Positions 3,560 through 63,556 are shown, counted from the first letter of the stretch. The stretch is DNA of 64,000 bases from Candidatus Poribacteria bacterium (GCA_965222225.1 CBDCTK010000002.1:2368001-2432000), one strand, 5' to 3'. The notes: generated from the letters alone by a model not told the origin. Made by a program: numbers and translations.

Positions 3560-3774
3560 GATCAACCGAGCGATTAGTTGTAGGGTGGGCACTGCCCACC
3601 ATCTCCTTTTGAGCAGGTTGCTTGTTAGGTGAGATCTGCGATCGTCAAATCACCGATTCTCCCCCTTACCGCCCACCATTTCTCTTGTAGGGTGCGATCA
3701 ACCGACTGATTAAGGAGGGCGATAGAGATCCACTGCGATCAAAGGAATGAATAATGACTGCGATAGAAAATCCT
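3560..3774 (+). repeat. Cluster of ~37-nt GATCAA..GCGATAG..TCYY hairpin elements inserted in REP palindromes
   Basis: Partial copy at 3560; full copies 3696-3731 and 3737-3774 sit at the two GCGC sites of tgtagggtgcgcactgcgcaccagcc; related empty REP tgtagggtgggcactgcccacc at 3579-3600. Confidence 0.85.
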
Positions 3775-3842
3775 ACCAGCCTTTTATTGTAGGCTGGGTA
3801 TCGCCTTCCAATCGAACCTCGCAATATCAAAAACATAAATAT

Positions 3843-4769
3843 ATGAATACACCACACACAACCACCCCAAACAAAATCAAACCCTCCTTCTCCGGTCACG
3901 AAACCTTCCCGTTTCGCTACACCTGGCTGAAGAAAGGCGTCGACGCCGTGATGGACGACCCAGCCGTTTTCACTAGCGACCGATCAACAATCACCCTCGG
4001 CGTCGGGAAAAACATGGTGCGCTCCATCCGCCACTGGTGCAACACAGCCGGGCTCATTCAAGCGGGGGACGATCGCACCCGATTAGAGCCGACCAACCTC
4101 GGAAGAGCCATCTTTGCCGATGACGGATTCGACCCGTACCTTGAGGACAGTGCAACCCTGTGGCTCATCCACGCGCAGCTTGCGGCAAACGCCAACCGAG
4201 CGACCACATGGTACTGGGCGTTCGGGTTCTTCAATCAGAGCGAGTTTAGAAAGGAGAGATTCACCTCCGAATTGCTCAATTGGACTGAAAAAACCGGATT
4301 GAAGCGAACCTCGGACAATTCGATTAACCGGGATGTCGATTGTTTTCTTCGGACGTACGTCCCCTCCCGCATGACGAAGGGTACGATGATAGAGGATTCC
4401 TTCAACTGTCCGCTCGTGGAATTGGGCCTTATCTCCGATTCATCCGACGGATTCACCTACCAATTCCACCGTGGAGCCAAACCTTCACTGCCGACTCCGG
4501 TTTTCGCCGCCGCTCTGTCCCGATTTTGGGGGTCCCACAATTCATCAAGAAACTCACTCGCATTGGCGGAAATCGCTTATTCACTGGAAAGTCCGGGACA
4601 AATTTTTAAGCTAGACGAGGACTCCGTCGTCGGTTATCTTGAGGAGCTCGAAAATCTAACGGATGGCGCCCTACGCTACGACGAAACGACGGGACTCAAA
4701 CAAGTGTACCGGGATGGAGGCATTGACGAAATCGAGCTACTTCGCAACTATTATAGACAATCCTCGTGA
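3843..4769 (+). CDS. sspB: DUF4007 protein, SspB-like (phosphorothioation-associated)
   Basis: FSGHETFPFRYTWLKKG, LGVGKNMVRSIRHW, DPYLED..TLWLIH and CPLVELGL motifs; ATG 3843 preferred because the ORF extension from 3747 starts inside a repeat. Confidence 0.85.
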   Translation: MNTPHTTTPNKIKPSFSGHETFPFRYTWLKKGVDAVMDDPAVFTSDRSTITLGVGKNMVRSIRHWCNTAGLIQAGDDRTRLEPTNLGRAIFADDGFDPYLEDSATLWLIHAQLAANANRATTWYWAFGFFNQSEFRKERFTSELLNWTEKTGLKRTSDNSINRDVDCFLRTYVPSRMTKGTMIEDSFNCPLVELGLISDSSDGFTYQFHRGAKPSLPTPVFAAALSRFWGSHNSSRNSLALAEIAYSLESPGQIFKLDEDSVVGYLEELENLTDGALRYDETTGLKQVYRDGGIDEIELLRNYYRQSS

Positions 4770-4783
4770 CAGCTGTAGAGTGA

Positions 4784-4974
4784 GATCAGGCGACTGAATA
4801 AGGATCAAACGAGTGGATAGCGAGTGCGATAGCTAATCCCGCGCGATAGCGTTCCCATAGAAATCCCATAGAAATTCCGTGAATCCCAACACCTGTAGGA
4901 GCGATCAACCGACCGATCAACTGAGTGGATAACGAAGGATCAAGCGAATGAATAATGAGTGCGATAGAGATCTT
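4784..4974 (+). repeat. Nested GATCAA hairpin elements
   Basis: Copy 4803-4840 nested in copy starting 4784, then stacked 3' tails; stacked 5' starts at 4903-4937 and full copy 4938-4974. Confidence 0.85.
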
Positions 4975-5054
4975 CACAGGTTGCATAGCATCAGAAACCG
5001 CTGCCGACTTTTTTAATCGTCAACCAAAAAGCCCAGATGGTTACAATCTCTTCC

Positions 5055-5120
5055 CCTCTTCTTCAACGCTCGATCAACATCGTCTGTTATCCCGCTTAAA
5101 TGTACAAAGTCGAGCTCAGA
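5055..5120 (+). repeat. ~65-bp dispersed repeat (…ccgcttaaatgtRcaaagtcgagct…)
   Basis: Diverged direct copy at ~39370-39435. Confidence 0.6.
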
Positions 5121-5427
5121 ATCCGTTTGGAAAATAGGTGGCAAAAGTATCTTTGATTGTTTGAGGAAGCACTTTGTCGCGTTTCTGTCGTCACCCGTCA
5201 TATTTCTGTCGCCCCGCTGGGGCTTAAGTACATGGGAATTAGGCGTTACTATACATCTTTCGCACCGCTGGTGCTTTCAGTAGTAGGGCGGATCGGAAAT
5301 CATCAAATCCCCGATTTCCCCTCTTATTGCCCACCATCTCTCAACAACGCATTGGTAGTAGAGGGCAACAATCGTTGCCCCTGCTGTTGTACGTACGAAT
5401 CCAACGCCCGTCGGACTGGATCAACGG

Positions 5428-6561
5428 TTACGCCTCGCCGAAGTAGCCGTATCCGGGCATCAGATGTTCCCTCGCAACCTCTTCGTTCAGTTCAACCCCT
5501 AATCCCGGCTGGTCGGGCACCACAAAAGCGTTATCCTGAATGAGCGGTTCCTTGGAAACCGCCAAATCCCATCGCCACGCCACCTGATCCGCGTGATACG
5601 GGAGTTCCATGACGATGAAATTCCGTACCGCGGCACAAACGTGCGCCGACGCTGTCATCCCGATCGGCGATGTGATATTGTGTGCGGCAAACGGCATATA
5701 ATACAAATCCGCCAGATCCGCAATCCTCTTTGCCTCCAGTATCCCTCCCGTTCCGGACACATCGACGTGAAGCATGTCGCAAGCCTGTGTCTGGATCAGA
5801 TCTCTGAAACCGTCTCGACGAAACAAAAACTCACCGGTACAGATTGGGATAGAAGTCGCGGCGCTTACCTTCGCCATCGCTTCGACATTATCGTTCGGCA
5901 CAGGGTCCTCCAAAAACATCAAATTGAACGGCTCCAAACATTCGGCAAGTTTCATAGCCGCGTGCACGCTGAATAGACTATGACAGTCGATGCTGATATC
6001 GATCTCATCGCCGACCGCCTCTCGCGCGGCGGCAACTAACGATGTCATTTTTCTCAACTCCGCCGAACTCAATTCCCGATTGACCGCATCCTGCTTGAGT
6101 TCGTTTGCGGAGTTATCAATGTCAAACTTGATCGCTTGGTAGCCGTCTTGGACACCTTCTCGCGCTCGCTGCGCCCAACCCTCCGGCGTGTTTCCCTCTC
6201 CATGCCCAACATCGGCATAGAGTCGAATACGCTCCCGATACCTCCCGCCCAACAACTGATAGACCGGCACGCCGAGGCTTTTTCCAAGCAAATCCCACAA
6301 CGCGGTTTCTATCCCGCCGATAGCCGATAAACCCCTCCCATATCGGTTGTTCACGGAACCAATCAGCCGGTTGTACAACGGCTCTATATTTCTCGGATCC
6401 GTTCCAACGAGCGTATTCCTGAATTGCAGGATAATTTCGGCGATTCCCGCCCCGGGATGCGCCTCTCCCAACCCCGTCAATCCCTCGTCGGTCTCAATCC
6501 GAACGTAGTTCCACTGTTTGTACCCTTTTAACGTCAAAGCCTTCACATCGGTAATTTTCAC
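5428..6561 (-). CDS. Mandelate racemase/muconate lactonizing enzyme family (galactonate dehydratase-like)
   Basis: VRIETDEG..GLGE, ALWDL.GK..GVPVYQLLGG, K.D, D.H, EDP, TGE and HN motifs; GTG start at 6561 with AGGAGGAG SD. Confidence 0.9.
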   Translation of the reverse strand: MKITDVKALTLKGYKQWNYVRIETDEGLTGLGEAHPGAGIAEIILQFRNTLVGTDPRNIEPLYNRLIGSVNNRYGRGLSAIGGIETALWDLLGKSLGVPVYQLLGGRYRERIRLYADVGHGEGNTPEGWAQRAREGVQDGYQAIKFDIDNSANELKQDAVNRELSSAELRKMTSLVAAAREAVGDEIDISIDCHSLFSVHAAMKLAECLEPFNLMFLEDPVPNDNVEAMAKVSAATSIPICTGEFLFRRDGFRDLIQTQACDMLHVDVSGTGGILEAKRIADLADLYYMPFAAHNITSPIGMTASAHVCAAVRNFIVMELPYHADQVAWRWDLAVSKEPLIQDNAFVVPDQPGLGVELNEEVAREHLMPGYGYFGEA

Positions 6562-6668
6562 GCCTCTCCTCCTACAATATACTCGGTCAAAAAGTTCTGT
6601 TAGTGTTGCGTATGTCAAGGATTCATGATAGCATTTCTCCCTGAGATCATGCAACATATGTAACGTGG

Positions 6669-6989
6669 GATCAAGCGACTGAATAGGGAGCGCGATAGTC
6701 TTCCTGTAGGGTGGACACTGCCCACCAGCCTTTGAAAACGCCAGCGGCGATCAAGCGACCAAATAGCGAGTAGGATTTTCTATCGCCCTCCCTATCCGGT
6801 CAGTTAATCGATAGAGATCCCAAGGCGATAGTCCTCCTGTAGGGTGCGATCAAAGGAATGAATAATGACTGCGATAGAGATCCCCTGCGCACCATCCTTT
6901 GAAAACGCCAGCGGCGATCAAGCGAGAGAATAGCGAGTAGGATTTCCTATCGCCCTCCCTATCCGGTCGGTTGATCGATAGAGATTCCC
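6669..6989. repeat. Tandemly duplicated REP + GATCAA-element mosaic
   Basis: Units ~6704-6821 and ~6838-6989, each with a reverse-oriented element (6772-6809, 6939-6976) nested in a forward one; extra copies at 6669 and 6848. Confidence 0.85.
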
Positions 6990-7007
6990 TCAACCAAGGA
7001 ACAAGCT

Positions 7008-8069
7008 ATGACACAAGAGAAACGAAAATGGCGAGTGGCAATTGCCGGTTGTCACCGCATGGTCACACGAACCCCCGGCAGCCATAACTTTGCCGCCGCC
7101 TTCTATTCGGTGCCAGAAGTCCAAGTCGTCGGCGTTTTCGATTTCGGTGCAGAGACCCGCGCCGAGTTTGTGACGTGCTGGCGAGATGCGTGGGGCGAGG
7201 TGACAACCTACGACGATTACGAACGCATGCTGTCCGAGATTCGCCCCGATCTACTATGCATCGCCACCCGCCAAACCATGCACGCCGACCAGATTGAACT
7301 CGCAGTCCAATCAGGCGTCCGCGGAATCCTTTGCGACAAACCCCTCGCCACCAGCCTCGAAGAACTCGATCGAATCAGCGCCGTCTGCCAAGATGTGCCG
7401 CTGCTATTCGCCCTCGATCGACGCTGGTACGCCCGCTACCGCTTTTTGAGGGGGCAGTTGGCTGACGGAATCATCGGTCCCGTTACCAGCATTACCGCCT
7501 ACGGGTTGTCGAACTTGATTAACCACGGCTGCCACTGGTACGATACACTACTCGCGTTAGCCGGTGACGTCGCGCCCGAATGGGTGAGCGGATTCGTTGA
7601 GGACATATCCGGCGAGCCGACGGAATCACGCAAACGGTTAGACCCCTCCGGCAGAGCCCAGATCGGATTATCGAACGGCGTTGTCCTTTACATTACCGCA
7701 GATGGTCGGCATCAAGGCCCCGGCCTGCCCATGAGTTTTGAGGTCGTTGGAGAGAACGGACGCCTTTTCCTGCTAAACGATGCGACGGAAAGTTTCGTCT
7801 GGCACGAGAACGAACCCTCGAATATCCAGCGATTGGAGCTACCCCAAGAAACCGAGCCTTGGCCCGCGGGGCGTGCCATGGTAGAAGACCTAATCAACGC
7901 CGTACACAGCGGCGGGAGGACTGCCTGCGATATAAGAGAGGCGTTCCCAGCCACAGAGATTGGCTTTGCCATTCACCTCTCGGCGAAGCAACAGGGCGCC
8001 CAAATCCAACTCCCCGCAGAAACCAGATCCCTCCAAATCAAGTCGTTTGAGTGGGGATCAACCGAATGA
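7008..8069 (+). CDS. Gfo/Idh/MocA family oxidoreductase
   Basis: VAIAGC Rossmann start, PDLLCIAT..H, ILCDKPLA, HGCHWYD; stop codon lies inside a GATCAA element. Confidence 0.88.
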   Translation: MTQEKRKWRVAIAGCHRMVTRTPGSHNFAAAFYSVPEVQVVGVFDFGAETRAEFVTCWRDAWGEVTTYDDYERMLSEIRPDLLCIATRQTMHADQIELAVQSGVRGILCDKPLATSLEELDRISAVCQDVPLLFALDRRWYARYRFLRGQLADGIIGPVTSITAYGLSNLINHGCHWYDTLLALAGDVAPEWVSGFVEDISGEPTESRKRLDPSGRAQIGLSNGVVLYITADGRHQGPGLPMSFEVVGENGRLFLLNDATESFVWHENEPSNIQRLELPQETEPWPAGRAMVEDLINAVHSGGRTACDIREAFPATEIGFAIHLSAKQQGAQIQLPAETRSLQIKSFEWGSTE

Positions 8070-8255
8070 ATAATGAGGGCGATAGAAATCCCCTCAACTG
8101 AGTGAATAGCGACTGCGATAGAAATCCTGCACCGCTTCCTGTAGGGTGCGCACTGCGATCAAGCGAATGAATAATGAGCGCGATAGAGATCTTACCAGCC
8201 TTTGAGAGTCCCAGCGGGGATCAAGCGAATGAAGAATGAGTGCGATAGAAATCCT
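8056..8255 (+). repeat. Four GATCAA hairpin elements (two in tandem, two in REP-like repeats)
   Basis: Copies 8056-8092, 8094-8128, 8157-8193 and 8219-8255. Confidence 0.85.
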
Positions 8256-8386
8256 GCACCATTTCTTGTTAGGATGCGACCAACGATTATCAAATCCCCG
8301 ATTTCCCCTTTTATTGCCCACCATCTCTCGACTACACATTGACACCTGACCATTACGCGAGAATCCGCCCCCGATCGGAGAAAAAC

Positions 8387-9010
8387 ATGTTATACTACCT
8401 GCGCCGCTCCACGCCGTTCATCGTCCTATACACCCTTGGAGTTGCGCTGATCGGGCACACGACAGGCACCACCCCTGTGGTGAACATCCCCGACGCCAAT
8501 CTCCGGGTACTGCTTGAGATAGCGCTTGACAAGCCCGATGGCGCCGCGATCACAGCCGCCGACATGGCGACTTTGACGGACTTCTCAGCGGCTAGGGGGC
8601 GGATTCGCGATCTGACCGGTCTTGAGTTTGCTGTCAATCTCATAGACCTATCCCTTCGCGAAAACCAAATTTCCGACCTATTACCATTGGCGGGATTAAC
8701 GAATCTGAAAGCCCTTGACCTTGGCGACAACCCATTAGTTGACCTATCTCCCCTCGCGGGATTAACAAAACTTGAATTTCTGGATATCCCCAGATGCGGA
8801 ATATCCGACCTGTCGCCGTTGGGAGGGTTAATGAATCTGGAAAGACTAGGACTTGTGGACAACCGTGTATCTGACGTATCGCCCCTCGTCGAATTAACCG
8901 GTCTGAAAGAGCTGGATCTGCGATCGAACACCCTGAACCCGAAAACAGTCACTACAGACATCCCACGCCTTGAAGCCAATGGTGTGTATGTAGAGCATTC
9001 GAGTAGATGA
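8387..9010 (+). CDS. Secreted internalin-like leucine-rich repeat protein
   Basis: Hydrophobic N-terminus, IPDANLR cap, 22-aa repeats L.L..N.ISDL.PL..LT.L; ATG 8387 after GGAG. Confidence 0.88.
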   Translation: MLYYLRRSTPFIVLYTLGVALIGHTTGTTPVVNIPDANLRVLLEIALDKPDGAAITAADMATLTDFSAARGRIRDLTGLEFAVNLIDLSLRENQISDLLPLAGLTNLKALDLGDNPLVDLSPLAGLTKLEFLDIPRCGISDLSPLGGLMNLERLGLVDNRVSDVSPLVELTGLKELDLRSNTLNPKTVTTDIPRLEANGVYVEHSSR

Positions 9011-9086
9011 ATCCTGATGATTCGAAAATAACGTCAGCCCGTGAGGACGGCAATCTCTAGACATAGCTTGAAACGAGTTAGAATCC

Positions 9087-12000
9087 ATGACTAAAGAAAT
9101 CCCACTTTCCGCAATCTTCCACGTGAGTAGTCGCTTCCGCCGATCAGTTCATCTAGAACGCGATTTCTATGCGGAGAACTCGCTGGATGGCTATGTCGTA
9201 ACCGTCACCGCACGCGAAACGCTGCGGCGTCTGATTTCCGCACTTGAAAACCCCTCGGCGTCGAAGGCCTGGTCCCTCACCGGCCCCTACGGCTCTGGAA
9301 AATCTGCGTTCGCGCTTTTTGCCGCGAAACTCGTAGGAAATCCCGAATCGCCGGATACGAAGCAAGCTTTGAATCTACTGGAACGCGGGGATGAGGCCTT
9401 ATGGAATCAGTTTGTCGGCGTGTGTACTAGCCGGCCAAAGGAAAGAGGTTTCTGTCCCGTCCTCATCTCCGGAGAACGCGCACCAATTACCATCGCCTTA
9501 CTGCGTGGATTGGCAGGCGGTCTCACCGCTTTCGGTAGCGGCTCAGAGTTTGTTCCGCTCATCAAGGCAATCGAAAGACGATTGGGGAGCGCAACACCTG
9601 AAAGTCCTCCCTACGCTTCTGAAATCACAGGTTTTTTTGAAACCGCGACTCATCAGATTGGTGAAATTGGCGGCGCTGGGCTAATATTGGTCGTTGATGA
9701 GCTTGGGAAGTTCCTTGAATATGCCGCACAACACCCGTCGCAGGGGGACATGTTCGTCCTACAGAGCCTTGCGGAGTTTGCGGCAAGAAGCGAGGATACA
9801 CCTCTGTTTCTGCTGACGATTCTCCATCAAGCCTTTGAGCAGTACGCACAACGGCTGGGGAAATCCCAACGCGAGGAGTGGGCGAAGGTACAAGGGCGTT
9901 TCGAGGACGTTGCCTTCATGGAGCCGACGGAACAAGTGCTCCGCTTGATTGGGGATGCGATTGAGGCGGATCATCACGTCAATGCGTCAAAGGCTCTAGG
10001 TAAAGCACGAAGCTTTCTCGCCGTTTCGGTTGACCTCGATCTTAAACCGCGCCAACTTACTACGTATAATTTTCTTCAGCTTCTTGAAAACTGTTTACCC
10101 CTTCACCCAACAGTGGCGCTAATTGTGGGATCGCTTTTTCGCCGATTCGCACAAAATGAACGCTCTCTTTTCGCATTGCTCAATTCCGGCGAACCGCACG
10201 GGCTCCAAGATTTTCTTGCCAACAGTATCTGTAATGGGAATCGTCTACCGCTCTTTTCGCTCCCCGATTTATATGATTATATAAACACCGCATTCGGAAA
10301 TCGACTCTATGGGTCAAGCGATGGCAAAAAGTGGGCGGGAATTGAGTCCGCCATTGCGCGGTTGCCGAACCCGTCACCGATGATGGTGACACTTATCAAA
10401 ACCATCGGTCTGCTCGGCGTCGTCGGAGAGGTGAGCGCAAATCTGAAGGGCTCAACAAATCTACTCCGGTATGCGCTAGACAATGGGACAGAAAACTACT
10501 CTCAAGAATTTGAGAGTGCCCTGTCGGAATTGGAAAAGCGATCGATTGCAATTTACCGCCGCCACAACGGCGCCTACGCCCTTTGGGAGGGAAGCGATAT
10601 TGATATCGAATCGAGGCTGAGCGAGGCAACAGCCCAGCTTGACTCGAATCAGCGATTGGCGCCCACCATCTCGGAAGTGCTTCCACCCCAACCGCTTATT
10701 GCCCGCCGGCATCTCTTCGAGTCCGGCACGTTGCGATACTTCGTTATTCGATACACCGATGTTGAAAGATTTGATGCCGATCTCCAAGAGCCGTTAGGCA
10801 ATGCCGACGGTTTGGTACTCTACGCTCTTCCTGCCAGCGAATTTGAAACCGAGACGCTTGTGAAAAAAGCAACCGAGGTTGCCGATCGAACAGAGGTACT
10901 CATTGCGATTCCCCAATCTATCGATCTCCTACAAGATGCTGTCGCTGAACTCAGGCGTTTGCGGTGGGTTGAGGAAAACACACCTGAACTTGCTGGCGAT
11001 GCAACGGCGCGGCGCGAACTCTCAGCGCGAATTGCAGAGGCAGAACGAACCCTATCTAATCAGTTGTCATCCGTCTTTGGAGCAACTATCGCCGCGCAGG
11101 AAGAAGGAGGATGTACGTGGTACCATGGCAGTCAACCAAAGAAAATCGTCTCAAGACGAGAGCTGAATGAGTATCTTTCGAAAATATGTGATGATGTTTA
11201 CTACGAGACACCAATCCTTCGCAACGAACTCATCAACCAACGCCAGCTCTCTCACTCCGCCTCGCGAGCGCGAAGAATGCTGATTAAGGCAATGCTTGAA
11301 TGCGGGGTCCAAGAAAACCTTGGTATAACCGGCTATCCGCCGGAAAGGAGCGTATATCTCTCTTTACTATCGGATACCGGTATCCACCGTTACGTTTCTG
11401 GTGAATGGGGATTACACCCACCAAAATCCGATCGCAATAACATCTCCTATACTTGGTCAACTATTGAGGCATTTCTTGACGACTGTGAAGTGGAGCGTCA
11501 GCCAGTCTCAGAACTCTATAAACGTTTGGAAGAACCCCCGATTGGTCTGAGAAGTGGTCCCATGCCTATCCTCCTGTGCGCTGTCTTGCTGCATTACGAA
11601 GCGGAAATCGCACTGTACGAAGATGGTTCCTTTATTACGGATATCTCAATACCTGTTTTTGAGAGACTAATCAGGTCGCCGGAGAAATTTGAACTCAAGC
11701 GTTTCCGGATGAGCGGCATTCGATCAGAGGTATTCTCGCAATTCTTGACACTAATATCCAAACCGTCGCCGGAGACAGGGCAGCCAAACCTGCTCGCAGT
11801 CGTCAAACCCCTCGTGCGTTTTGTCACCAAACTGCCGCGTTATACGATGCTCACCCAAGAATTAACACAAGAAGCAATCGAATTTCGGAAAACTATTACC
11901 AGCGCGCGAGAACCCGACGCGCTCCTGTTCGTCCAATTGCCTCAAGCTCTCGGTTTTGATGCTTTTGGCCCCTACGAAGAAATGAATCCGACTACTGTGG

Positions 12001-12617
12001 GCCGATTTTTTAATACCTTGCAAAGAGTATTGTCTGAATTAAATCGGGCTTATGGTGACCTGCTGGATTTGGTTGCGGGTCTTCTGTCTTCGGCATTTTC
12101 ATTGAGAGGAAACGGCGAGGAGATTCGGGTAGAACTGTATAGACGGGCAGAATCACTGCTTGATTTGACGATTGAGACGAAACTCAAGGGATTTTTCCTT
12201 CGGGTCTGTGACGAAGAACTTGATTTTAGGGAATGGCTTGAGGCAATTGGTACCTACATCGTCCAGAAACCCCCGTCAGCTTGGAACGACACCGACAAAA
12301 CCCAGTTTCAGATGAACCTTGCCGAACTTGGGAAGAAGTTTCACCACTTCGAAGCTGTTTCATTTGATCGACGAAAGCAATCCGATGTGTTTTCTGATAG
12401 TGATGGGGAAGTGATGCGCGTCGGCATCACCACACTCAAGGCGGAGGAGCAGGCGCGAGTAATTACGTTGCATCCAATCGCTGAAACACAGGCAAAGGAA
12501 ATCGAGCATGAAATTGAGCAGATTTTTGAACTCGCTGGCGTTGCCGAGGATACTGAACTTCGTCTTGCTGTATTGGCGCGTCTATCCCGAAAGTTAATGG
12601 AGCAGCTTGAGGATTAA
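9087..12617 (+). CDS. sspC: Large P-loop ATPase, SspC-like
   Basis: 1176 aa; RSVHLERD, Walker A GPYGSGKS, Walker B LVVDELGKFLEY, EW.KVQGRF, PLHP and FAQNERSLF motifs; lies between the DUF4007 and PAPS reductase genes. Confidence 0.8.
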   Translation: MTKEIPLSAIFHVSSRFRRSVHLERDFYAENSLDGYVVTVTARETLRRLISALENPSASKAWSLTGPYGSGKSAFALFAAKLVGNPESPDTKQALNLLERGDEALWNQFVGVCTSRPKERGFCPVLISGERAPITIALLRGLAGGLTAFGSGSEFVPLIKAIERRLGSATPESPPYASEITGFFETATHQIGEIGGAGLILVVDELGKFLEYAAQHPSQGDMFVLQSLAEFAARSEDTPLFLLTILHQAFEQYAQRLGKSQREEWAKVQGRFEDVAFMEPTEQVLRLIGDAIEADHHVNASKALGKARSFLAVSVDLDLKPRQLTTYNFLQLLENCLPLHPTVALIVGSLFRRFAQNERSLFALLNSGEPHGLQDFLANSICNGNRLPLFSLPDLYDYINTAFGNRLYGSSDGKKWAGIESAIARLPNPSPMMVTLIKTIGLLGVVGEVSANLKGSTNLLRYALDNGTENYSQEFESALSELEKRSIAIYRRHNGAYALWEGSDIDIESRLSEATAQLDSNQRLAPTISEVLPPQPLIARRHLFESGTLRYFVIRYTDVERFDADLQEPLGNADGLVLYALPASEFETETLVKKATEVADRTEVLIAIPQSIDLLQDAVAELRRLRWVEENTPELAGDATARRELSARIAEAERTLSNQLSSVFGATIAAQEEGGCTWYHGSQPKKIVSRRELNEYLSKICDDVYYETPILRNELINQRQLSHSASRARRMLIKAMLECGVQENLGITGYPPERSVYLSLLSDTGIHRYVSGEWGLHPPKSDRNNISYTWSTIEAFLDDCEVERQPVSELYKRLEEPPIGLRSGPMPILLCAVLLHYEAEIALYEDGSFITDISIPVFERLIRSPEKFELKRFRMSGIRSEVFSQFLTLISKPSPETGQPNLLAVVKPLVRFVTKLPRYTMLTQELTQEAIEFRKTITSAREPDALLFVQLPQALGFDAFGPYEEMNPTTVGRFFNTLQRVLSELNRAYGDLLDLVAGLLSSAFSLRGNGEEIRVELYRRAESLLDLTIETKLKGFFLRVCDEELDFREWLEAIGTYIVQKPPSAWNDTDKTQFQMNLAELGKKFHHFEAVSFDRRKQSDVFSDSDGEVMRVGITTLKAEEQARVITLHPIAETQAKEIEHEIEQIFELAGVAEDTELRLAVLARLSRKLMEQLED

Positions 12618-12670
12618 ATGGAGCAACCTGAAAATAGGCAGGCGAATTGTGCTCCCAGCAGGCAGCACAG

Positions 12671-12699
12671 TTGACAAAATAGCGTTTACGGCTTATAAT
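12671..12699 (+). promoter_or_regulatory. Consensus sigma70 promoter
   Basis: TTGACA (12671-12676), 17-nt spacer, TATAAT (12694-12699). Confidence 0.8.
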
Positions 12700-12716
12700 A
12701 TCAGATTGTAGGGTGC

Positions 12717-12789
12717 GATCAACCGAGTGAACAACGATCAAAGGAACGGATAGTGACTGCGATAGAAGATCCCGTGCGATATAGATCCT
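12717..12789 (+). repeat. Nested GATCAA elements in a REP
   Basis: Inner copy 12736-12773 inside an outer copy; the same outer 5' part recurs at 31163. Confidence 0.85.
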
Positions 12790-12940
12790 ACAGGTATATA
12801 GCAGGCAACTACAAAAACATGAAAAACCTTTCTTCAAATCAGCAATAATGGCTTTGCTATCGATTATTTAAACGGGCTCTAAAGCGGAGGGGATTTCTGC
12901 CCTATCGAGATGAAGCAAGATGCGGTGGGATCAAAACGGG

Positions 12941-13132
12941 ATGAAAATCGTCTACGACAGTGAAGCCGATGTTCTGTACGTTACTCGTGGCACACTAGAA
13001 TACACAGAGTACATTGAGCACTCCGAAGATGTAATTCTCCGTCTCGACCCCGACACCAAACGGTTGGTCGGAATCACAGTCATCGATCTTTCGCAGCACT
13101 TCGGGAAAGCGGATTTCAGCTTATCCAACTGA
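12941..13132 (+). CDS. DUF2283 domain protein (orphan)
   Basis: MKIVYDSEADVLYV...VILRLD...LVGITVID. Confidence 0.78.
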   Translation: MKIVYDSEADVLYVTRGTLEYTEYIEHSEDVILRLDPDTKRLVGITVIDLSQHFGKADFSLSN

Positions 13133-13155
13133 AATCCGTCCATCAGGAGGTAGAC

Positions 13156-13974
13156 ATGATCGAAAATAGACGCCACATCCTTGGGCTTTCCGGCGGCAAA
13201 GATAGCTCGGCGCTCGCCATTTACATGCGGAGTAGGGTGCCGGAGATGGAGTACGCTTTCTGCGACACCGGGAAGGAACTGCCGGAGACGTATGAATTTC
13301 TCGATCGCTTGGAAGCCTTTCTAGGCAAGAAGATTGAACGGTTAAACGCCGATCGTGACTTTGACCACTGGCTCTCGGTCTTTGGTGGACTGCTCCCGTC
13401 ATCTCAAGTGCGTTGGTGCACGCGCTTGTTGAAAATTAAACCGTTTGAGGAATTCGTGGGTGATGACTTGGCTTACAACTACGTCGCCATACGCGCCGAT
13501 GAAAACCGCGTCGGTTACAAGCCGCTCAAGAACGTTGAGAACCGAAATATCGAACCCAAATATCCGTTTAAGGAAGATGGCATCACCGAGGCGGATGTCT
13601 ATCGGATTCTGGAGGAGAGCGGTCTAGGCTTGCCAGAGTACTACAAGTGGCGGACACGCTCAGGATGCTATTTCTGTTTCTATCAACGCAAAGCCGAATG
13701 GGTTGGATTGATGGAAAAGCACCCCGATCTCTTTGAACTCGCTAAGACTTACGAGAAATTCAACGATGAGACGGGCGAGAGGTATACCTGGAGCCAAAGT
13801 GAAAGTTTGGCAGAACTTTCGGATACCGAGCGGATTGAGCAGATTAAGGACAGTTACGCGAAAGCCATGACGCGGAAGAAAACCTCGCAACCGAATCGTT
13901 CCTTGGTAGAAATTTTCGACGACACGCTTGATGACGAGGATGATGAGGAACCTTGTCTGATTTGCGATTTGTGA
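13156..13974 (+). CDS. sspD: PAPS reductase family protein, SspD-like
   Basis: SGGKDS PP-loop, DTG.E.PETY, RWCT..LK..P, RSGCYFC and C-terminal acidic CLIC; AGGAGGT SD. Confidence 0.85.
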   Translation: MIENRRHILGLSGGKDSSALAIYMRSRVPEMEYAFCDTGKELPETYEFLDRLEAFLGKKIERLNADRDFDHWLSVFGGLLPSSQVRWCTRLLKIKPFEEFVGDDLAYNYVAIRADENRVGYKPLKNVENRNIEPKYPFKEDGITEADVYRILEESGLGLPEYYKWRTRSGCYFCFYQRKAEWVGLMEKHPDLFELAKTYEKFNDETGERYTWSQSESLAELSDTERIEQIKDSYAKAMTRKKTSQPNRSLVEIFDDTLDDEDDEEPCLICDL

Positions 13975-13987
13975 GGACCAAATCAGT

Positions 13988-14581: not shown

Positions 14582-14604
14582 ATCCAAGAATTAAGGACAG
14601 CATT

Positions 14605-17134: not shown

Positions 17135-17152
17135 CCAAACAATTCATGTGGC

Positions 17153-19848: not shown

Positions 19849-20075
19849 GACAAGCGAACGGATAGTGAGTGCGATAGTAAATCCCTCAAGCGAACGGATA
19901 GTGAGTGCGATAGAAAGTCCTGTGCGATAGTAAATCCCTCAAGCGACTGAACAAGGATCAAGCGAACGGATAAGGAGTGATCAACTGACTGGACAAGGAA
20001 GGCGATAGTAATTCCTGATAGCGAATCCCGTGCGATAGAAGATCCTGATAGAGATCCCTCAACTGACTGCATAAT
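19849..20075 (+). repeat. Large tandem/nested array of GATCAA hairpin elements
   Basis: Tandem copies from 19849 and 19886; triple nest 19939-20046 (middle starts 19956, inner 19979-20016). Confidence 0.85.
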
Positions 20076-20245: not shown

Positions 20246-20551
20246 GTAACTGTTTAGTGGCTAGTGATTAGTGACTAGCAAAAACCTTAAAGCCGTAAGA
20301 CGTGCAAGGAATTGCATTACTACGAACCTGCAAGCGGAGATTTCGTAGCGCAAAGATCTCTATGGGAGCTCTATCGCACTCACTGTTCGTTCGCTTGATT
20401 ACTCGCTATTCACTCGCTTGATCTGTCAGATTGTGCTTGTGATGCGCAAACTGACAGTTTGCGGTACGGGAGACTTATTCCACAACACTGTAGGACAGGA
20501 CATGAATCTCACTAGTCACTGACCACAAGCCACTGGCCACTAAACACTTAC
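20246..20551. mobile_element. MITE (306 bp)
   Basis: TIRs GTAACTGTTTAGTGGCTAGTG / GTAAGTGTTTAGTGGCCAGTG (19/21); 8-bp TSD TAACCCGC at 20238-20245 and 20552-20559; no ORF; contains nested GATCAA elements at 20352-20423 (-). Confidence 0.85.
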
Positions 20552-21029
20552 TAACCCGCTATCCAAGTGCTCCCCAAAAAAGTGGGGTGAAATATACGAG
20601 CGAACTTTAGCGAACTTTAACGAAGCGCGTCGCGCATGGCTTCAAGCCACGCCCGGCAAGGCTTCAAGCGCAATTTCAGAGCTTGTCGAAAAAGTTCGCT
20701 CTAATCTCGACAACGTCACTGTAAACGACACACGCGATCTGCTTGCCGTAGCGCGCTCCATCAACTCCATCGGTGGCTTTTGAGCATGTCATCATGCGAA
20801 TGGACAAGAAGTGCGATAGAGCTCCCCATAGGGTGGGCTGAAGTGAAGACCTTGAAACTTAAAAAGCGCAATTTCTAACCGCGTGAGGTATAACTCAATG
20901 AGCGCACAGAACTCGGGTACCATCGGAGTTCTGACCATTGATGTCATTTCCAAGCCAATTAGAACAAACGTAGATGCCATCAGGCTCCAGGGTTATTTTG
21001 GAAAGATGTCTATTGGAGGTGATACGCGG

Positions 21030-24748: not shown

Positions 24749-24835
24749 GATCAAAGGAATGAATAATGACTGCGATAGAAAGTCTTGATAGAACTCCCAT
24801 AGTTAATCCCGTGCGATAGAGCTCCCATAGAGACC
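24749..24835 (+). repeat. GATCAA element followed by stacked 3' tails
   Basis: Full copy 24749-24786, then gatagaactccc / atagttaatccc / gtgcgatagagctccc / atagagacc. Confidence 0.8.
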
Positions 24836-26626: not shown

Positions 26627-28298
26627 CATGCCGGTCGAATTCTCTTCCCGCACCCGGGCACAGAACATCCAAAACCTAAAGCGCGAGCCGTTGGACGTGC
26701 TGGTCATCGGCGGCGGCATCGTGGGCACCGGGCTAATTCGTGATCTCGCCCTAAACGGCGGGATCCGAGCCGGGTTGGTTGAGAAGGGCGACTTCGCCAA
26801 CGGCACCAGCAGCGCCACCTCCCAACTCATCCACGGCGGTTTTCGGTATCTCATCAAACGCGATTTCGCGCTCATTAAAGAGGCGCGGCGCGAACGCGAA
26901 ATCCTGCTGCGCATTGCGCCGAACCTCGTCAAACCGGCGCCGCTCGCCATCCTCAATTACAAGGGGGATCCCTATCCGCTCTCCGGAATGAGCATCGCGG
27001 CACAGTATTACAATCACCTCTCGAAAGCTGACAAGGCGGAGAAAGCTCGCACGATACGCGATCCGGCGCAGATACGGGATCTGGTCGGTCCCATTGAGAC
27101 ACAGTCGTTGAAAGGCTGCGTTGTGGTTTGGGATAGCAGGGTCGACGATGCGCGATTGACCCTACTGACGCTGAAGGATGCGTACCGGCACGGCGCTGTG
27201 GTAGCAAACTACGTCCGCTTCGTCGAATTCATCGCCCAGCCAAGTAAAGCCAACCGGGCGTACACAGTTCGTGTTGAAGATGTCCTCTCCGGCGAACAGT
27301 TTGAGATAGTTACACACAAGATTGTGTCGGCAGCCGGTCCTTGGACAGATCGGCTCTGGGAGAAGGACCCCGCCTACGATGGCGTGCCGCGATTGACAAC
27401 CCGAAAGGCTAAAGGAATTCACCTTATCTTGCCCCGGTTGAACCGGAGCGACTGCGGCATAGCGACGTTCACCCGCGCGGAAAAACGTCAGAACGAAAAA
27501 CCTCGCATCATTTTCACTCTTACCTTCAACGATTCGCTTTCTGCGATTGGCACCACCGAAACCGATCCCGAGGCGGATCCCGATTGTGTGCGCCCCTCTG
27601 CCGCCGAGGTGGATTACCTGCTTTCGGAAGTCGCGCGAATTTTCCCGACGGCAGCAGCCGTCAATCGGGTGAGCATCGTGTCCGCGTATGCGGGCGTGCG
27701 CCCCCTCATCGCCCCCAAGGGCGATGGCTTTGTCTCCCGCGAACACCTTATCACCGAGAGCAAAAGTGGAGTGCTCTACATCTACGGCGGCAAGTTGACC
27801 ACGCACCGAAAGATTGCCGAGGAGGCTGTCGATTGCATCGCGGAGGGACTGGGGCGTCCGCGTTCCTGCAAAACCGCAGCGCACCCACTGGGAGACAACG
27901 CCGAGCACGTGTTGGATGGAGACGCCAAACTGATTCCGCCTGCGTACAGAGAACGGATTATTGGACGCTACGGTGGAGACGCAGCCGTCATCGGAAAGTT
28001 AATCGCCGAAGATCGGACGCTGGCAGAGCCGATGTCGGAATCGTCCGCCTACTTGAAAGCGGAGGTGCTCTATGCCTTTTGGGGTGAAATGGCGATGACG
28101 CTCGACGACCTGCTCTGGCGGCGTTTTCGAATCGGCTTCAAACGAGGTCAAGGCATTGACCTGGCGCCGAAAATCGCGCGCTTCCTCGGTGAAAGAGGAC
28201 ACTGGAACGAAACTAGAATGGCATCCGAAGTAGAAGCCTACACGCAACGAATCGCCCAACTGAATGCGGAATTCAAGAACGATCAACCGAGTGAATAA
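26613..28298 (+). CDS. glpD: FAD-dependent glycerol-3-phosphate dehydrogenase/oxidase
   Basis: DVLVIGGGIVG, GTSS.TS.LIHGG.RY, DDARL, GVRPL, SREH and GGKLTT.R; last codons and stop come from a GATCAA element. Confidence 0.88.
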   Translation: MMPFDMPVEFSSRTRAQNIQNLKREPLDVLVIGGGIVGTGLIRDLALNGGIRAGLVEKGDFANGTSSATSQLIHGGFRYLIKRDFALIKEARREREILLRIAPNLVKPAPLAILNYKGDPYPLSGMSIAAQYYNHLSKADKAEKARTIRDPAQIRDLVGPIETQSLKGCVVVWDSRVDDARLTLLTLKDAYRHGAVVANYVRFVEFIAQPSKANRAYTVRVEDVLSGEQFEIVTHKIVSAAGPWTDRLWEKDPAYDGVPRLTTRKAKGIHLILPRLNRSDCGIATFTRAEKRQNEKPRIIFTLTFNDSLSAIGTTETDPEADPDCVRPSAAEVDYLLSEVARIFPTAAAVNRVSIVSAYAGVRPLIAPKGDGFVSREHLITESKSGVLYIYGGKLTTHRKIAEEAVDCIAEGLGRPRSCKTAAHPLGDNAEHVLDGDAKLIPPAYRERIIGRYGGDAAVIGKLIAEDRTLAEPMSESSAYLKAEVLYAFWGEMAMTLDDLLWRRFRIGFKRGQGIDLAPKIARFLGERGHWNETRMASEVEAYTQRIAQLNAEFKNDQPSE

Positions 28299-28334
28299 CG
28301 AGGGCGATAGCAAATCCCGTGCGATAGAGATCCT
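28281..28334 (+). repeat. GATCAA element overlapping the glpD stop
   Basis: Full copy 28281-28318 plus a 3' tail. Confidence 0.85.
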
Positions 28335-29521: not shown

Positions 29522-29608
29522 GATCAAGCGACCGAATAGGTAGGGAGCGATTAACTGAGTGGATAACGAAGGATCAAGCGAATGGCTAATGAGTGCGATA
29601 GAGATCCC
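29522..29608 (+). repeat. GATCAA element mosaic
   Basis: ~60-bp compound nearly identical to 4915-4972; full copy 29572-29608. Confidence 0.8.
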
Positions 29609-31162: not shown

Positions 31163-31393
31163 GATCAACCGAGTGAACAACGATCAAGCGACTGAATAAG
31201 GAGCGCGATAGAAATCCCGTGCGATAGAGTTCCCCTTGCCCCGCCGCCTTTGCGCGGAGACAAGGCTGCTTATTCCGCTCCACACGAGTTCCTTTACTCG
31301 ATCCACGTAATCAATGCACTTGAATTTTAGAGAAATGGTATAAATCTTGATAGAGGTCCTAGGGCGATAGAAAATCCCGTGTGATAGAGATTC
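31163..31393 (+). repeat. Nested GATCAA elements plus stacked tails
   Basis: Inner copy 31182-31218 inside outer 31163-31234; 3' tails at ~31349-31393. Confidence 0.8.
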
Positions 31394-39221: not shown

Positions 39222-39291
39222 GATCAGGCGAGTGGATAGATCAAAGAAGTGAATAGCGACCGCCAAAGAGATCCCGTGCGATTGAAATCCT
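39222..39291 (+). repeat. Degenerate nested GATCAA elements
   Basis: Inner copy 39239-39275 inside an outer copy, inserted in an aaagcccagcgggg repeat. Confidence 0.7.
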
Positions 39292-43238: not shown

Positions 43239-43323
43239 GATCAAGCGAACGATCAACTGAGTGGATAGCGAAGGCGATAGTAAATCCCACAGTGAGTGCG
43301 ATAGAGCTCCCATAGTAAATCCT
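43239..43323 (+). repeat. Nested GATCAA elements
   Basis: Inner copy 43251-43288 in the loop of outer 43239-43311, plus a tail. Confidence 0.85.
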
Positions 43324-49227: not shown

Positions 49228-49308
49228 AATCTCTATCGTGGTCGCTGTGGGATCTACTATCGCCTTCCCTAATCAGGCAGTTGGTCTCCTTTGATCGGTC
49301 AGTTGCTC
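49228..49308 (-). repeat. Reverse-oriented GATCAA elements
   Basis: Copy 49249-49286 plus stacked 5' parts. Confidence 0.7.
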
Positions 49309-58789: not shown

Positions 58790-58813
58790 TCGGAGATGGA
58801 GGGCGTGTAGACG

Positions 58814-61869: not shown

Positions 61870-61984
61870 TTCCTACGTCTATTTTTCTGCCATCGGACAA
61901 TTAGGGAACGCAGATCTGCGTTCCCTACAATCTGAATTGTGCAAATCCTAAATGACCAAAACACCCTAAAAGGGAGATAACGAA

Positions 61985-63274
61985 ATGGCTGATTCCGATG
62001 TCCTCGCCGAGCGAGCCGCTTGTTACCATGATCAGGTTATGGACGTTGCCTGCGGTCCGGGTGGGATACTCATCGCCTTCCCGCGTTTCGATACGCGCAA
62101 GCCGTTCCACGAAGGCGTGACATACCCGGGGCACTGGAACGTGGCGGAAACCATCAAGGGCGCCTGGAGCGCTTACGGACCGAAACCCACCGTCGCCGAA
62201 TTCCTCTACGGCGAGAACACGCTGTGGGCAACCGGCTGGTTCCTGTGGTCGCAGATTTTACGCCACCGCGCAACTGGGCAGCCGGAAGCCCTCGAGACAG
62301 CGCGCAAATGTTTTCGGGATCTGAACTACCTCTTTAAACTATGCGGAGAGTTGGAACCCGGCTTGCTGGGCAAACCGCACGGAGGCCGCGCAGGACCCAA
62401 CACCAGCTTTGACCAATCGGCGTGCCCGGTCGCCTTCTACGCCACCTACGCCCAAGAACTGGCGACACCGGAGGAAAAGGCACAAGCCACCGAAAACTTG
62501 CGGGCGCACGGACATTACTATCTGCGCCGCAACTGGGTGATGAACCTTTTCGGCATTTTGCACCGGATTGTCGAGCCGGTGGCGACGGTGAGTGTCATGA
62601 AATATCTGGCGTGCATGTACGCGGCTTACGAACTCACGGGCGAGACCGAATTTCGGGACGAGGTTTTCAAGCACCTCCGCGAGATTATCCCGATGCTGCC
62701 CTTTCCCACCAACCCGTATCCCACATGCCACAACCTCTATTATTGGGCACTGCTGTGTGATTTCTGGAGCCGCACGGAGATAGGCGACGAGGCTGACTGG
62801 ATTGGTTACATCGGAGAATACTGGAAGGCTGCCCGCACCGCGCGGGACAGCGAGGGGCTAAGCCTCGCCGGTTACTACGACACGGAGGATGGTTCTTTTA
62901 CACCCTATCCCGACCAATGGCTGACGCACGAAGATTCCAAGTCCAACGCGCCGTGGGGCGGTAAGTGGGGCCACGCCCCGGAGAAAGAGGGCGTAAGAAC
63001 GTGGGTATCATCCACCAACATGAACAATCGGGCGCTTTGTTCGGCGATGTTCGCCGCGCTCGGTCTTCTCGCGCGTTCGCACGGCTTTGACGACAATGCG
63101 CACGAACTCGCCCGCCAAACCCTGCTGCGTATGGATGCCGACTCGCTGCGCTGGTGGTGGGATGACGGGAACCTGCCCGACGAACTGAAGGGGCTCCACA
63201 ATATCTTCGCCCCCGAGGTCGCCGGTGTGTGGCAGGTTGCCTACTGGATGGGGGTGTCGCAGGGCGTATGGTAG
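61985..63274 (+). CDS. Hypothetical protein (possibly alpha/alpha-barrel glycan enzyme)
   Basis: 429-aa ORF with host-like codon usage, GGAG SD, aromatic-rich helical pattern; in a glycan cluster. Confidence 0.6.
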   Translation: MADSDVLAERAACYHDQVMDVACGPGGILIAFPRFDTRKPFHEGVTYPGHWNVAETIKGAWSAYGPKPTVAEFLYGENTLWATGWFLWSQILRHRATGQPEALETARKCFRDLNYLFKLCGELEPGLLGKPHGGRAGPNTSFDQSACPVAFYATYAQELATPEEKAQATENLRAHGHYYLRRNWVMNLFGILHRIVEPVATVSVMKYLACMYAAYELTGETEFRDEVFKHLREIIPMLPFPTNPYPTCHNLYYWALLCDFWSRTEIGDEADWIGYIGEYWKAARTARDSEGLSLAGYYDTEDGSFTPYPDQWLTHEDSKSNAPWGGKWGHAPEKEGVRTWVSSTNMNNRALCSAMFAALGLLARSHGFDDNAHELARQTLLRMDADSLRWWWDDGNLPDELKGLHNIFAPEVAGVWQVAYWMGVSQGVW

Positions 63275-63502
63275 CCTCAGCCAATCAGCAGAGTTACCCA
63301 CGAAGGGGAAAGAAAGGGTTGCGAGGAAAACGTATGAACCACGCGCCTTTTCAGGTGTTGGTCTGCCCTATAGAATCACGCCGGATAATGCGGTTCTTTA
63401 CGCGCTTTTTATAGTAAAACCAATTTGTTATGTATACACTGCGGTAGGTTCGGTTTCCTAACCGAACTGGTGTTTATTCAGTCTCGTAGGTGCGGTTGGA
63501 AA

Positions 63503-63556
63503 GGGATTTCTATCGCGCGGGATTAGCTATCGCCTTCGCTAATCGCTCAGTTGATC
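63503..63556 (-). repeat. GATCAA element supplying the stop codon of the last gene
   Basis: Copy 63519-63556 (-) plus a tail. Confidence 0.85.

Follow-up and report, generated by a model that had tools for sequence, protein, structure and literature searches.

A hairpin cassette built around G.A pairs in Candidatus Poribacteria, a probable miniature mobile DNA unit

The kind of element described here is already known, its near analogues being the repetitive extragenic palindromic (REP) sequences and REPINs that accompany REP-associated tyrosine transposases (RAYTs), and the small dispersed repeats (SDRs) of Elhai and colleagues. The element is a cassette that recurs in a 64,000-nucleotide (nt) stretch of a Candidatus Poribacteria metagenome-assembled genome (MAG; GCA_965222225.1, CBDCTK010000002.1:2368001-2432000), referred to below as the window. 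We consider it fairly probable that the cassette is a non-autonomous miniature mobile DNA, which would pass through a single-stranded DNA intermediate and be handled in trans by an enzyme that reads its hairpin.

As excerpted, PMC3116915 describes REPINs in which sequence blocks are kept while stem bases change compensatorily. The cassette resembles the REP/REPIN-RAYT system in being a short extragenic hairpin with hundreds of copies, compensatory change in the stem, and presumed recognition as a single strand; the genome that carries it also holds GTAG-headed REPs and RAYT-like genes. It differs in starting with GATCAA and having no 5' GT[AG]G of its own, its GATAG lying 3' of the hairpin, and in apparently not being the flanking repeat of any RAYT gene family. 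Its stem is arranged around tandem G.A pairs, whereas a REP is a GC-rich palindrome, and the cassette acts as a separate insert that enters REPs and copies of itself at a defined target.

Like SDR4-6 of the Nostocaceae (Elhai et al. 2008, Genome Res 18:1484), the cassette is very small and inserts precisely between two set bases of a short host motif. Elhai et al. are said to have described, in 2008, nested SDRs of 21-27 nt with hairpin content. The differences, drawn from descriptions of the SDRs only, are the other phylum, the length of 34-37 nt, apparently the sequence, and the G.A hairpin. In the excerpted text of PMC4390886, SDR5 enters HIP1 between the third and fourth bases (GCG^ATCGC), and the excerpt of PMC5861425 records no SDR-like repeat outside Nostocaceae among the cyanobacterial genomes examined there. 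A cyanobacterial HIP1/STRR/SDR context for the present repeat was considered and rejected: GCGATCGC occurs only 120 times in the genome, and the closest homologues of one of its Y1 genes are all in Candidatus Poribacteria MAGs.

In IS608 and ISDra2, a hairpin is recognized on one strand, insertion takes place 3' of a short sequence without duplication, and there is a strand bias related to replication. The cassette resembles the IS200/IS605 and palindrome-associated transposable elements (PATEs) in inserting 3' of a short target, in one orientation and without duplication, and an IS200-like Y1 transposase is encoded in the genome. It differs in having one hairpin where the insertion sequence (IS) has two different ends; no full-length element with cassette ends was found, and the IS200-like Y1 gene is flanked by REP-Y, a repeat described below, rather than by the cassette. 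Classical miniature inverted-repeat transposable elements (MITEs), such as Correia/NEMIS, ERIC, and Nezha, are likewise non-autonomous, intergenic, and present at high copy number, but the cassette is 3-10 times smaller and has neither target duplication nor terminal inverted repeats, its ends GATCAA and GATAG..ATCC not being inverted repeats of each other. Unlike the repeats of a CRISPR array, its copies vary (586 of 1005 are distinct), are dispersed on both strands, and are nested irregularly.

Our search of the literature on REP-like repeats in Poribacteria and on sheared pairs in REP/RAYT systems returned no description of such repeats. The claim of the first-pass annotation, a reading of the window's sequence alone, that the repeat belongs to no described REP or MITE family stands at the sequence level, on the strength of that search and of the lack of an Rfam match. 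What is clearly new is the other phylum, the hairpin built from G.A pairs, the discrete 34-36-nt insertion at G^C(A/G), and the invasion of REPs and of the cassette itself. The cassette is among the smallest well-supported mobile DNA units outside cyanobacteria.

Motif, abundance, and fold of the cassette

The assembly that holds the window is a 5.70-Mb Candidatus Poribacteria MAG with 50% G+C, consisting of a 5.64-Mb contig and a 63-kb contig. We searched for the pattern GATCAA-NN-GA-NN-GNANA-NN-GA-NN-GCGATAG with up to two mismatches and found 22 matches in the window, against none in 100 dinucleotide-preserving shuffles, and 1005 genome-wide (576 exact, 295 with one mismatch, and 134 with two; 556 on the plus strand and 449 on the minus strand). 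These 1005 copies comprise 586 distinct 30-mers, the commonest of which is present 45 times, and by an 11-mer census the cassette is the most abundant repeat in the genome. A covariance model, built from 59 distinct copies in nine genomes (the window and the eight syntenic loci of other species), finds 24 copies in the window at E<1e-4, 19 on the plus strand and 5 on the minus strand, and 33 at E<=1. All the base combinations that the first-pass annotation listed for the outer variable pairs recur in the pattern search. Its description of copies on both strands likewise holds, but the statement that they lie in most intergenic spaces was too strong, as copies are found in 13 of about 40.

Each cassette measures 34-37 nt and consists of a 30-nt core followed by a pyrimidine-rich tail of 4-7 nt, with a net insertion of 34-36 nt. 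Among the genome copies, 20 of the 30 core positions are conserved at 90-99%, the variable ones being 7, 8, 11, 12, 14, 16, 18, 19, 22, and 23. The tail had been called invariant at first reading, which does not hold: it takes several forms (AGATCC, AAATCC, TAAATCC, and, in another genus, TCTT).

The variable bases change in pairs. Over a span of 90 alignment columns, mutual information is highest for 11-19 (1.06 bits), 8-22 (0.73 bits), and 7-23 (0.68 bits), and 12-18 ranks fifth (0.31 bits), with one tail-register pair interposed. The share of the 1005 copies with a Watson-Crick or G:T pair is 94.7% at 7-23, 93.6% at 8-22, 96.1% at 11-19, and 96.5% at 12-18, and the covariation of all four pairs also holds on the 586 distinct sequences. 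In the alignment of 59 copies, 93.6% of the cells pair, compared with 61.0% in shuffles, and the covariation score of 1.001 (0.354 when shuffled) is reached by 0 of 500 shuffles; shifting the structure by 1-3 columns as a control gives at most 0.23. Common stem types number ten for the outer and eight for the inner stem, and their linkage is moderate (1.08 bits versus 0.51 in shuffles).

Wobble pairs are tolerated in one sense only. In the outer pair, G7:T23 occurs 237 times and T7:G23 once; in the inner pair, T12:G18 occurs 135 times and G12:T18 never. This one-sidedness marks the written strand as the constrained, folding strand. In nearest-neighbor calculations on 518 distinct segments, the written strand gives the better fold of the two strands in 431 (RNA parameters) or 404 (DNA parameters). 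The bases 5' of G9, G13, and G20 are rich in pyrimidines: C or T fills position 12 in 99% of copies and positions 8 and 19 in ~75-78%, and A never occurs at the latter two. Sheared G.A pairs are typically stable where a pyrimidine lies 5' of the G (pyrimidine-G...A-purine).

From these comparisons, a predicted core fold of 2 bp, tandem G.A/A.G, 2 bp, and a loop closed by G...A is well supported, and selection of the hairpin for its structure is supported as well. This is the core that the first-pass annotation had proposed: the four pairs covary, the wobble is one-sided, a pyrimidine lies 5' of all three G.A pairs, and the covariation is significant on distinct copies. The outer ATC/GAT stem, the AA/GC internal loop, and the GATC/GATC closing stem consist of invariant columns, for which covariation speaks neither for nor against. 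Rfam returned 0 matches at the gathering threshold over the whole window and 0 at E<=1 over positions 3500-8400.

Insertion target, nesting, and strand bias

The genome contains several REP families headed by GTAG, namely REP-A (GTAGGGTGCGCACTGCGCACCAGCC), REP-B (GTAGGGTGGGCACTGCCCACC, 120 copies), REP-C (CTGTAGGAGCGATCTCC..TCGCGAC), and REP-E (GTAGGCGGGG..CCCCGCC), and the GTAG upstream of ~45% of cassette copies belongs to a host REP-A, -B, -C, or -E. Natural empty and filled sites can be compared in REP-A, for which a search with GTAGGGTG-(CGCACTGCGC or GGCACTGCCC)-ACCA[GT]CC gave 166 genome matches. Ninety-eight of these are empty, with 10 nt between the blocks; among the filled ones, 16 carry 34 additional nt at GTGCG^CA (site 1) and 18 carry 35 additional nt at CTGCG^CA (site 2), and the matches at 79 nt (7) and the single cases at 77-81 nt mostly hold two cassettes. 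All listed inserts (inner lengths 38-91) share the orientation of the GTAG strand; the palindromic REP-A offers G^CA on the opposite strand too, yet the inserts keep one orientation. Site 2 is occupied by at least 12 different cassette sequences, which points to independent insertion events. A second, unrelated host, REP-Y (GCCCCAGCGGGGCGACAGGTGTATAG), is filled in 38 cases at GG(G/C/A)G^C, against 66 native ones, and in another genus cassettes lie at the G^CA of GTAGGCGGGG..CCCCGCC hairpins and in GTAGGTTGGGTT..AACCCAAC hairpins.

Across REP-A (two sites), REP-B, REP-E, REP-Y, and the cassette itself, the target reads 5'-(C/G)G^C(A/G)-3'. On the left the junction is exact, in that GATCAA begins with a G of the target; a filled REP-A reads GCG-ATC there. 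Comparison of empty with filled sites revealed no target-site duplication; GATC...GATC was rejected as a candidate duplication, as the empty REP-A, REP-B, and REP-Y sites have no GATC. The pairs of empty and filled sites, the nesting, and the fixed target together support the proposal in the first-pass annotation of a non-autonomous mobile unit.

Cassettes also enter one another. Immediately upstream of 282 of the 1030 full copies lies a 5' partial copy, of 10 nt (17 cases), 12 nt (46), 17 nt (34), 18 nt (19), 19 nt (44), 21-22 nt (4), or 23 nt (116), and every partial stops just short of a G in the outer copy. A ..GCGATAG remainder lies behind the inner copy in 61 cases, and the outer halves are complementary in 40 of them, where shuffling gives a mean of 21.8 and a maximum of 32 (2000 shuffles). 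Behind the 23-nt partials, a (C)ATAG remainder occurs in 77 of 116 cases, compared with 122 of 748 copies without a partial. Such remainders are expected of nested inserts and explain the stacks of CATAG-AAATCC tails at 4833-4885. About half of the 282 partials have no recognizable remainder behind the inner copy, which leaves room for a deletion or an abortive copying process.

Of the 901 copies scored, 624 have the written strand on the locally C-rich strand (p about 1e-31). So do 255 of the 391 solo copies, in which the 25 nt upstream contain neither a REP head nor a cassette or REP-Y, and the GTAG strand is skewed in the same sense in REP-A/B (98 of 129), REP-C (55 of 87), and REP-Y (34 of 52). 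A replication-linked process on single-stranded DNA would give such a bias. As a separate observation, the GC skew of the 5.6-Mb contig (G000:C2) flips sign many times and shows no two arms, reflecting either many rearrangements or assembly joins at repeats, which calls for caution in replication-related statistics on this contig.

Under the reading that we favor, of a mobile cassette moved in trans, the written strand would fold into the G.A hairpin between the invariant GATCAA and GCGATAG, and the cassette would spread as DNA, probably single-stranded, in one orientation and directly 3' of the G in (C/G)G^C(A/G), replacing 0-2 bases. Its favored targets are the apical part of the REP-A, -B, and -E hairpins, the base of REP-Y and, within other cassettes, the G24^C25 step. 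Insertion at such places builds nested stacks, and a cassette is carried along when its host REP multiplies. Retaining the fold and the invariant blocks would leave a copy competent for further copying; hence the variable bases would covary over hundreds of copies. The host enzyme that recognizes the hairpin in trans would most likely be an HUH/Y1 protein, IS200-like or RAYT-like, that also serves the REPs. More tentatively, the cassette may be a hyperparasite of the REP/RAYT system, in which a REP-processing enzyme pastes the 34-nt module of single-stranded DNA, by cut and replacement, at the loop-side G^CA, and the REP stays mobile and carries the cassette on.

The cassette might also be a mere passenger that entered a few REP founders and was then spread by the RAYTs of the REPs and by gene conversion. 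Eleven of the 16 REP-A site-1 composites indeed share the commonest variant; a longer composite, of REP-Y, cassette, and a shared flank ending in ..GCAGCCAACAATGAAAACATG, recurs at least six times; cassette and REP families share the strand bias; and all genomes rich in cassettes carry Y1 genes and REPs as well. We regard this account as unlikely. The diversity of cassettes at REP-A site 2 does not fit a few founders, at least four host repeats are hit at G^C(A/G), cassettes enter one another there on both strands, the 391 solo copies among the 901 scored have no host repeat close upstream, and nested stacks cannot arise by gene conversion.

Still less probable, in our judgment, is a route through RNA, in which a folded transcript would be reverse-transcribed at a nicked G^C in a target-primed manner, with template jumps producing the partial stacks and the ragged 3' junction. 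This would suit the tolerance of G:U-type wobble on one strand only, the exact left and imprecise right junctions, the partials without a remainder, and the fact that partials end before a G, which is also the first base of a new copy. RNA parameters also fold the motif better than DNA parameters, and contigs from one RNA library have about twice the repeat-to-unique depth ratio of DNA-like runs, a weak indication given possible DNA carry-over. Against it, there is only one weak reverse transcriptase (RT)-like gene (26.8 bits), patchy among cassette genomes; cassettes lack any orientation relative to genes, which gives no sign of sense transcripts being supplied steadily; the GC-skew bias points to a DNA process; and 117 nested cases (40 of 61 plus 77 of 116) keep the matching remainder that insertion predicts.

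Genomic placement, phylum distribution, and candidate enzymes

The great majority of the chromosomal copies (923 of 1002, 92%) lie outside crude open reading frame (ORF) calls. Cassette density is 0.75-0.81 per kb in all four intergenic classes, alike in tandem, convergent, and divergent spacers, and between genes on the same strand 322 cassettes are co-oriented and 292 anti-oriented; this even density and absence of orientation relative to genes argue against a role in transcripts. Eight congeneric species share the gene order of window positions 1-14000, with 78-93% identity, and the five intergenic regions compared differ in every congener, the cassettes there not being orthologous.

For a census of the phylum, 176 Poribacteria genomes from 31 genera were searched for the cassette with at most one mismatch. 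All 10 genomes of its own genus carry 580-1270 copies, and all 4 genomes of a second genus, from another family, carry ~200. Seven other genomes have 1-19 copies, so that high copy number is seen in only two of the 31 genera, and the remaining 155 genomes have none at this threshold. The picture is one of a long-lived family, still copying and filtered for its fold and invariant blocks.

These data also bear on the idea that each site is kept by selection at its locus, as a protein-binding hairpin, mRNA stabilizer, terminator, or nucleoid organizer, roles of the kind that enterobacterial REP elements have acquired. Twenty positions are strongly conserved over two genera of different families, and the structure is kept. 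We nonetheless give this explanation very little weight: copies are unoriented to genes and equally dense in all types of spacer, are not orthologous between congeners, interrupt one another and other repeats, were not found in 155 of the 176 phylum genomes, and match nothing in Rfam. An assembly or library artefact deserves practically no credence and was rejected. Thirteen other assemblies, drawn from two genera, contain the cassette in hundreds of copies, and contigs of runs from other studies pass from unique genes into cassettes, so that the repeat is not an assembly artefact; the check on this point suggested by the first-pass annotation thus came out in favor of a genuine repeat. The read data consisted of Logan unitigs, which break at repeats, and a raw Hi-C run with a depth of 0-20x, and show the existence of the cassette only. 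A search of a plasmid collection with contig C1 gave no match.

A profile search of the genome for candidate enzymes gave five Y1_Tnp matches, and a single RT-like gene (L006) was found at a weak 26.8 bits, below the Pfam cut-off. Locus L001 (G000:C2:3078872-3082216) is an IS200-like Y1 gene (NF033573, 65.8 bits) with the signature DHIH / WQ / YIKNQEAHH of "subclass 1.2" of Quentin et al. 2018 (PMC6006769), a subclass that the excerpted source defines and lists without typical terminal structures and REPs. Both L001, which is intact, and L005, a remnant, are flanked by inverted cassettes. More than 40 homologous Y1 loci in other Poribacteria are flanked by inverted REP-Y arrays, and the left-flank cassette of L001, as well as the cassettes at three close orthologues, sits at the gene-adjacent REP-Y insertion step. 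REP-Y and the L001-type Y1 are common to the same 5 of 10 genera. Judging from these arrangements, REP-Y rather than the cassette is probably the REP of the L001 lineage. Cassettes also lie within 300-1300 nt of three other Y1 loci of the second genus, despite the low cassette density there.

REP-Y deserves a remark in its own right. Its arrays of a 26-nt unit (GCCCCAG[CA]GGGGCGA[CA]AGGTGTATAG) bracket the subclass-1.2 Y1 genes L001, L008-L053, L096, and L097, and its stem covaries (GCCCC/GGGGC, GCGCC/GGCGC, GCACC/GGTGC, GCTCC/GGAGC). A REP-type association of subclass-1.2 Y1 genes may be new. Separately, the RAYT-like genes of one lineage, L003 (G000:C2:3087437-3090769) and its homologues in G001, G027, G030, G035, and G037, repeatedly have one in-frame TAG in a similar place (6 places in 6 genomes); it could reflect decay or a recoded or read-through stop.

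A number of observations weigh against a mobile cassette read as single-stranded DNA by a host enzyme, and several concern the enzymes. The inverted cassettes at L001 and L005 can be accounted for by insertion of cassettes into REP-Y, and L001 with its flanks was rejected as specific evidence for a master element: the enzyme gene flanked by cassettes that the first-pass annotation had recommended looking for exists, but its flanks appear to be REP-Y in origin. Four Y1 lineages were profiled on 41 genomes. The L001 type occurs in 9 of 9 congeners (3 with a stop or split) and in 2 of 4 second-genus genomes, the two in which it was not found both being single-contig assemblies, and it is also present in two genera whose sampled genomes lacked cassettes, in all 7 genomes of one and 5 of the 10 of the other. 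As drivers, we rejected the L002 and L004 types, each in only 2 of 9 congeners, and the L003 type, in 6 of 9 congeners and in cassette-free genera as well. The RT-like L006 was also rejected, as it is found in 5 of 9 congeners, 4 of those with stops, and in 1 of 4 second-genus genomes; it occurs too in 1 of 7 genomes of a genus in which no cassettes were found. Among the 41 genomes, then, none of the four Y1 lineages matches the distribution of the cassette, nor does the RT-like gene follow it across genomes, and no single Y1 lineage is common to all cassette genomes. A link to Y1 is plausible, but neither kind of mover suggested in the first-pass annotation, HUH/Y1 or RT, tracks the cassette.

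Other points on this side concern the DNA itself. The right junction is imprecise, the tail ending in ATC plus 1-3 pyrimidines with 0-2 target bases missing or changed, whereas transposition junctions in the IS200/IS605 family are exact, and IS608-type elements are reported to have the opposite polarity of strand bias. Part of the copy number is hitch-hiking with the host REP, as with the commonest variant at REP-A site 1. No excision product, circle, present/absent allele, or transcript end was found in the reads, where unitigs break at repeats. Finally, nearest-neighbor calculation gives a mean folding energy of only -0.9 kcal/mol with DNA parameters and -2.6 with RNA parameters, and the proposed pairs appear in the minimum-free-energy structure of 26 of 518 (DNA) and 251 of 518 (RNA) distinct segments; we judge these energies uninformative for a G.A motif, whose sheared pairs the parameter sets may credit inadequately. 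With regard to a self-sufficient relative, no long autonomous element bounded by cassette halves was found among 914 well-formed 23-nt units, which continue into the GCGATAG tail or a one-base variant (~750) or another cassette start (~85), with no recurrent long continuation.

Copies in the window and neighboring features

The copies in the window, with scores from the covariance model, are as follows.

3560..3603, plus strand: 18-nt 5' partial cassette (GATCAACCGAGCGATTAG) abutting an empty REP-B hairpin (GTAGGGTGGGCACTGCCCACC)
3687..3781, plus strand: composite of one REP-A (GTAGGGTGC..ACTGC..ACCAGCC) with both G^CAC sites filled by cassettes; cores 3696-3725 (48.3 bits) and 3737-3766 (48.2 bits), each followed by an A(G/A)ATCC-type tail
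4803..4832, plus strand: full core (48.2 bits)
4915..4967, plus strand: 23-nt 5' unit 4915-4937 (21.6 bits) abutting full core 4938-4967 (51.5 bits)
6669..6698, plus strand: full core (50.3 bits)
6749..6809, both strands: plus 5' unit 6749-6773 (14.8 bits) interrupted by minus cassette 6780-6809 (42.4 bits)
6848..6877, plus strand: full core in REP-A site 1, commonest genome variant (48.2 bits)
6916..6976, both strands: plus 5' unit 6916-6940 (16.9 bits) and minus cassette 6947-6976 (49.9 bits)
8056-8085, 8092-8121, 8157-8186, and 8219-8248, plus strand: cluster of four cores (51.9, 34.7, 52.2, and 46.5 bits)
12736..12765, plus strand: full core (46.7 bits)
19849..20008, plus strand: three cores 19849-19877, 19884-19913, and 19979-20008 (35.8, 42.7, and 47.0 bits)
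19937-19962, plus strand: weak copy (13.1 bits)
20371..20423, minus strand: full core 20371-20400 (45.0 bits) abutted by 23-nt 5' unit 20401-20423 (21.2 bits)
20790..20819, plus strand: degenerate copy (23.9 bits, E 0.003)
24749..24778, plus strand: full core, commonest variant (48.2 bits)
28281..28310, plus strand: full core overlapping the last codons of crude ORF 26613-28298 (51.7 bits)
29549..29601, plus strand: 23-nt 5' unit 29549-29571 (17.4 bits) abutting full core 29572-29601 (45.8 bits)
31182..31211, plus strand: full core (51.7 bits)
39239..39268, plus strand: degenerate copy (21.0 bits, E 0.014)
43251..43280, plus strand: full core (48.5 bits)
49257..49286, minus strand: diverged full copy missed by the two-mismatch pattern (31.0 bits, E 6e-5)
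63527..63556, minus strand: full core with its tail down to ~63519 (46.9 bits)

The composite at 3687..3781 has the layout of the 79- to 81-nt class of the REP-A search. A 19-nt 5' partial stands before the core at 4803, and tail remainders (GCGCGATAG.., and CATAGAAATCC twice) are stacked behind it to ~4885, an arrangement that by its sequence is best read as nested insertions; 4915-4967 lies in a REP-C head (CTGTAGGAGC) that begins near 4895. Both minus cassettes, at 6780-6809 and 6947-6976, entered the complementary CTATCG^CAC step of the outer plus copy. In the cluster of four, the core at 8157 is in REP-A site 2 and that at 8219 stands behind a REP-Y-like hairpin (GTCCCAGCGGG). The core at 12736 has a 19-nt 5' partial in a GTAGGGTGC head before it and a GTGCGATA.. 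remainder after it. The copies that had been called degenerate at first reading, at 8092, 39239, and ~19937, do score low in the covariance model (34.7, 21.0, and 13.1 bits), and the copy noted at 63519 is the minus-strand copy 63527-63556, whose low end, tail included, that position marks.

Besides the cassette, the genome has at least five short repeat families, with examples in the window at 3579-3603, 6700-6725, and 8122-8156; one of them, in addition to REP-A, -B, -C, and -E, is AAAACTCGGTTTC, with ~135 copies genome-wide. Two IS1595-family insertion sequences (DDE_Tnp_IS1595 plus zinc ribbon) lie at 16870-18135 (ORF 17153-18007, minus strand) and 41780-43050 (ORF 42056-42910, plus strand); more than 30 copies are listed in the genome at 99-100% identity, which indicates very recent activity. 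These were rejected as a source of the cassette, being unrelated DDE elements. A ~345-bp repeat at 19014-19359 has copies of 84-88% identity in congeners, dozens each in G005, G006, and G009, and may be a separate MITE-like family. Finally, a gene cluster at 3747-16461, syntenic across the genus, encodes a DUF4007 protein, a 1176-amino-acid protein without a Pfam match, a PAPS-reductase-like (DndC-like) protein, and a DndB-like protein, and looks like a DNA-sulfur-modification or related defense island.

How repeats of a few dozen bases multiply is an open problem: REP/RAYT activity has not been reconstituted as transposition, and the enzyme of the SDRs is unknown. The cassette offers a clean case, with ~10,000 copies in 14 genomes, an exact left junction, a defined target of G^C(A/G), a strict choice of strand, natural empty and filled sites, and a fold specified to the base pair by covariation, three G.A pairs included; together these make direct oligonucleotide tests with the few Y1 candidates possible. 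Should the hyperparasite reading hold, the cassette would amount to a new and minimal type of mobile DNA, one hairpin that has neither ends of its own nor a gene dedicated to it, and would serve as a natural substrate that defines what Y1/HUH enzymes need in order to cut and join DNA. For those who annotate or assemble Poribacteria MAGs, it is also a warning, as contigs break at cassettes. In these sponge symbionts, the cassette explains how intergenic DNA changes fast under a stable gene order.

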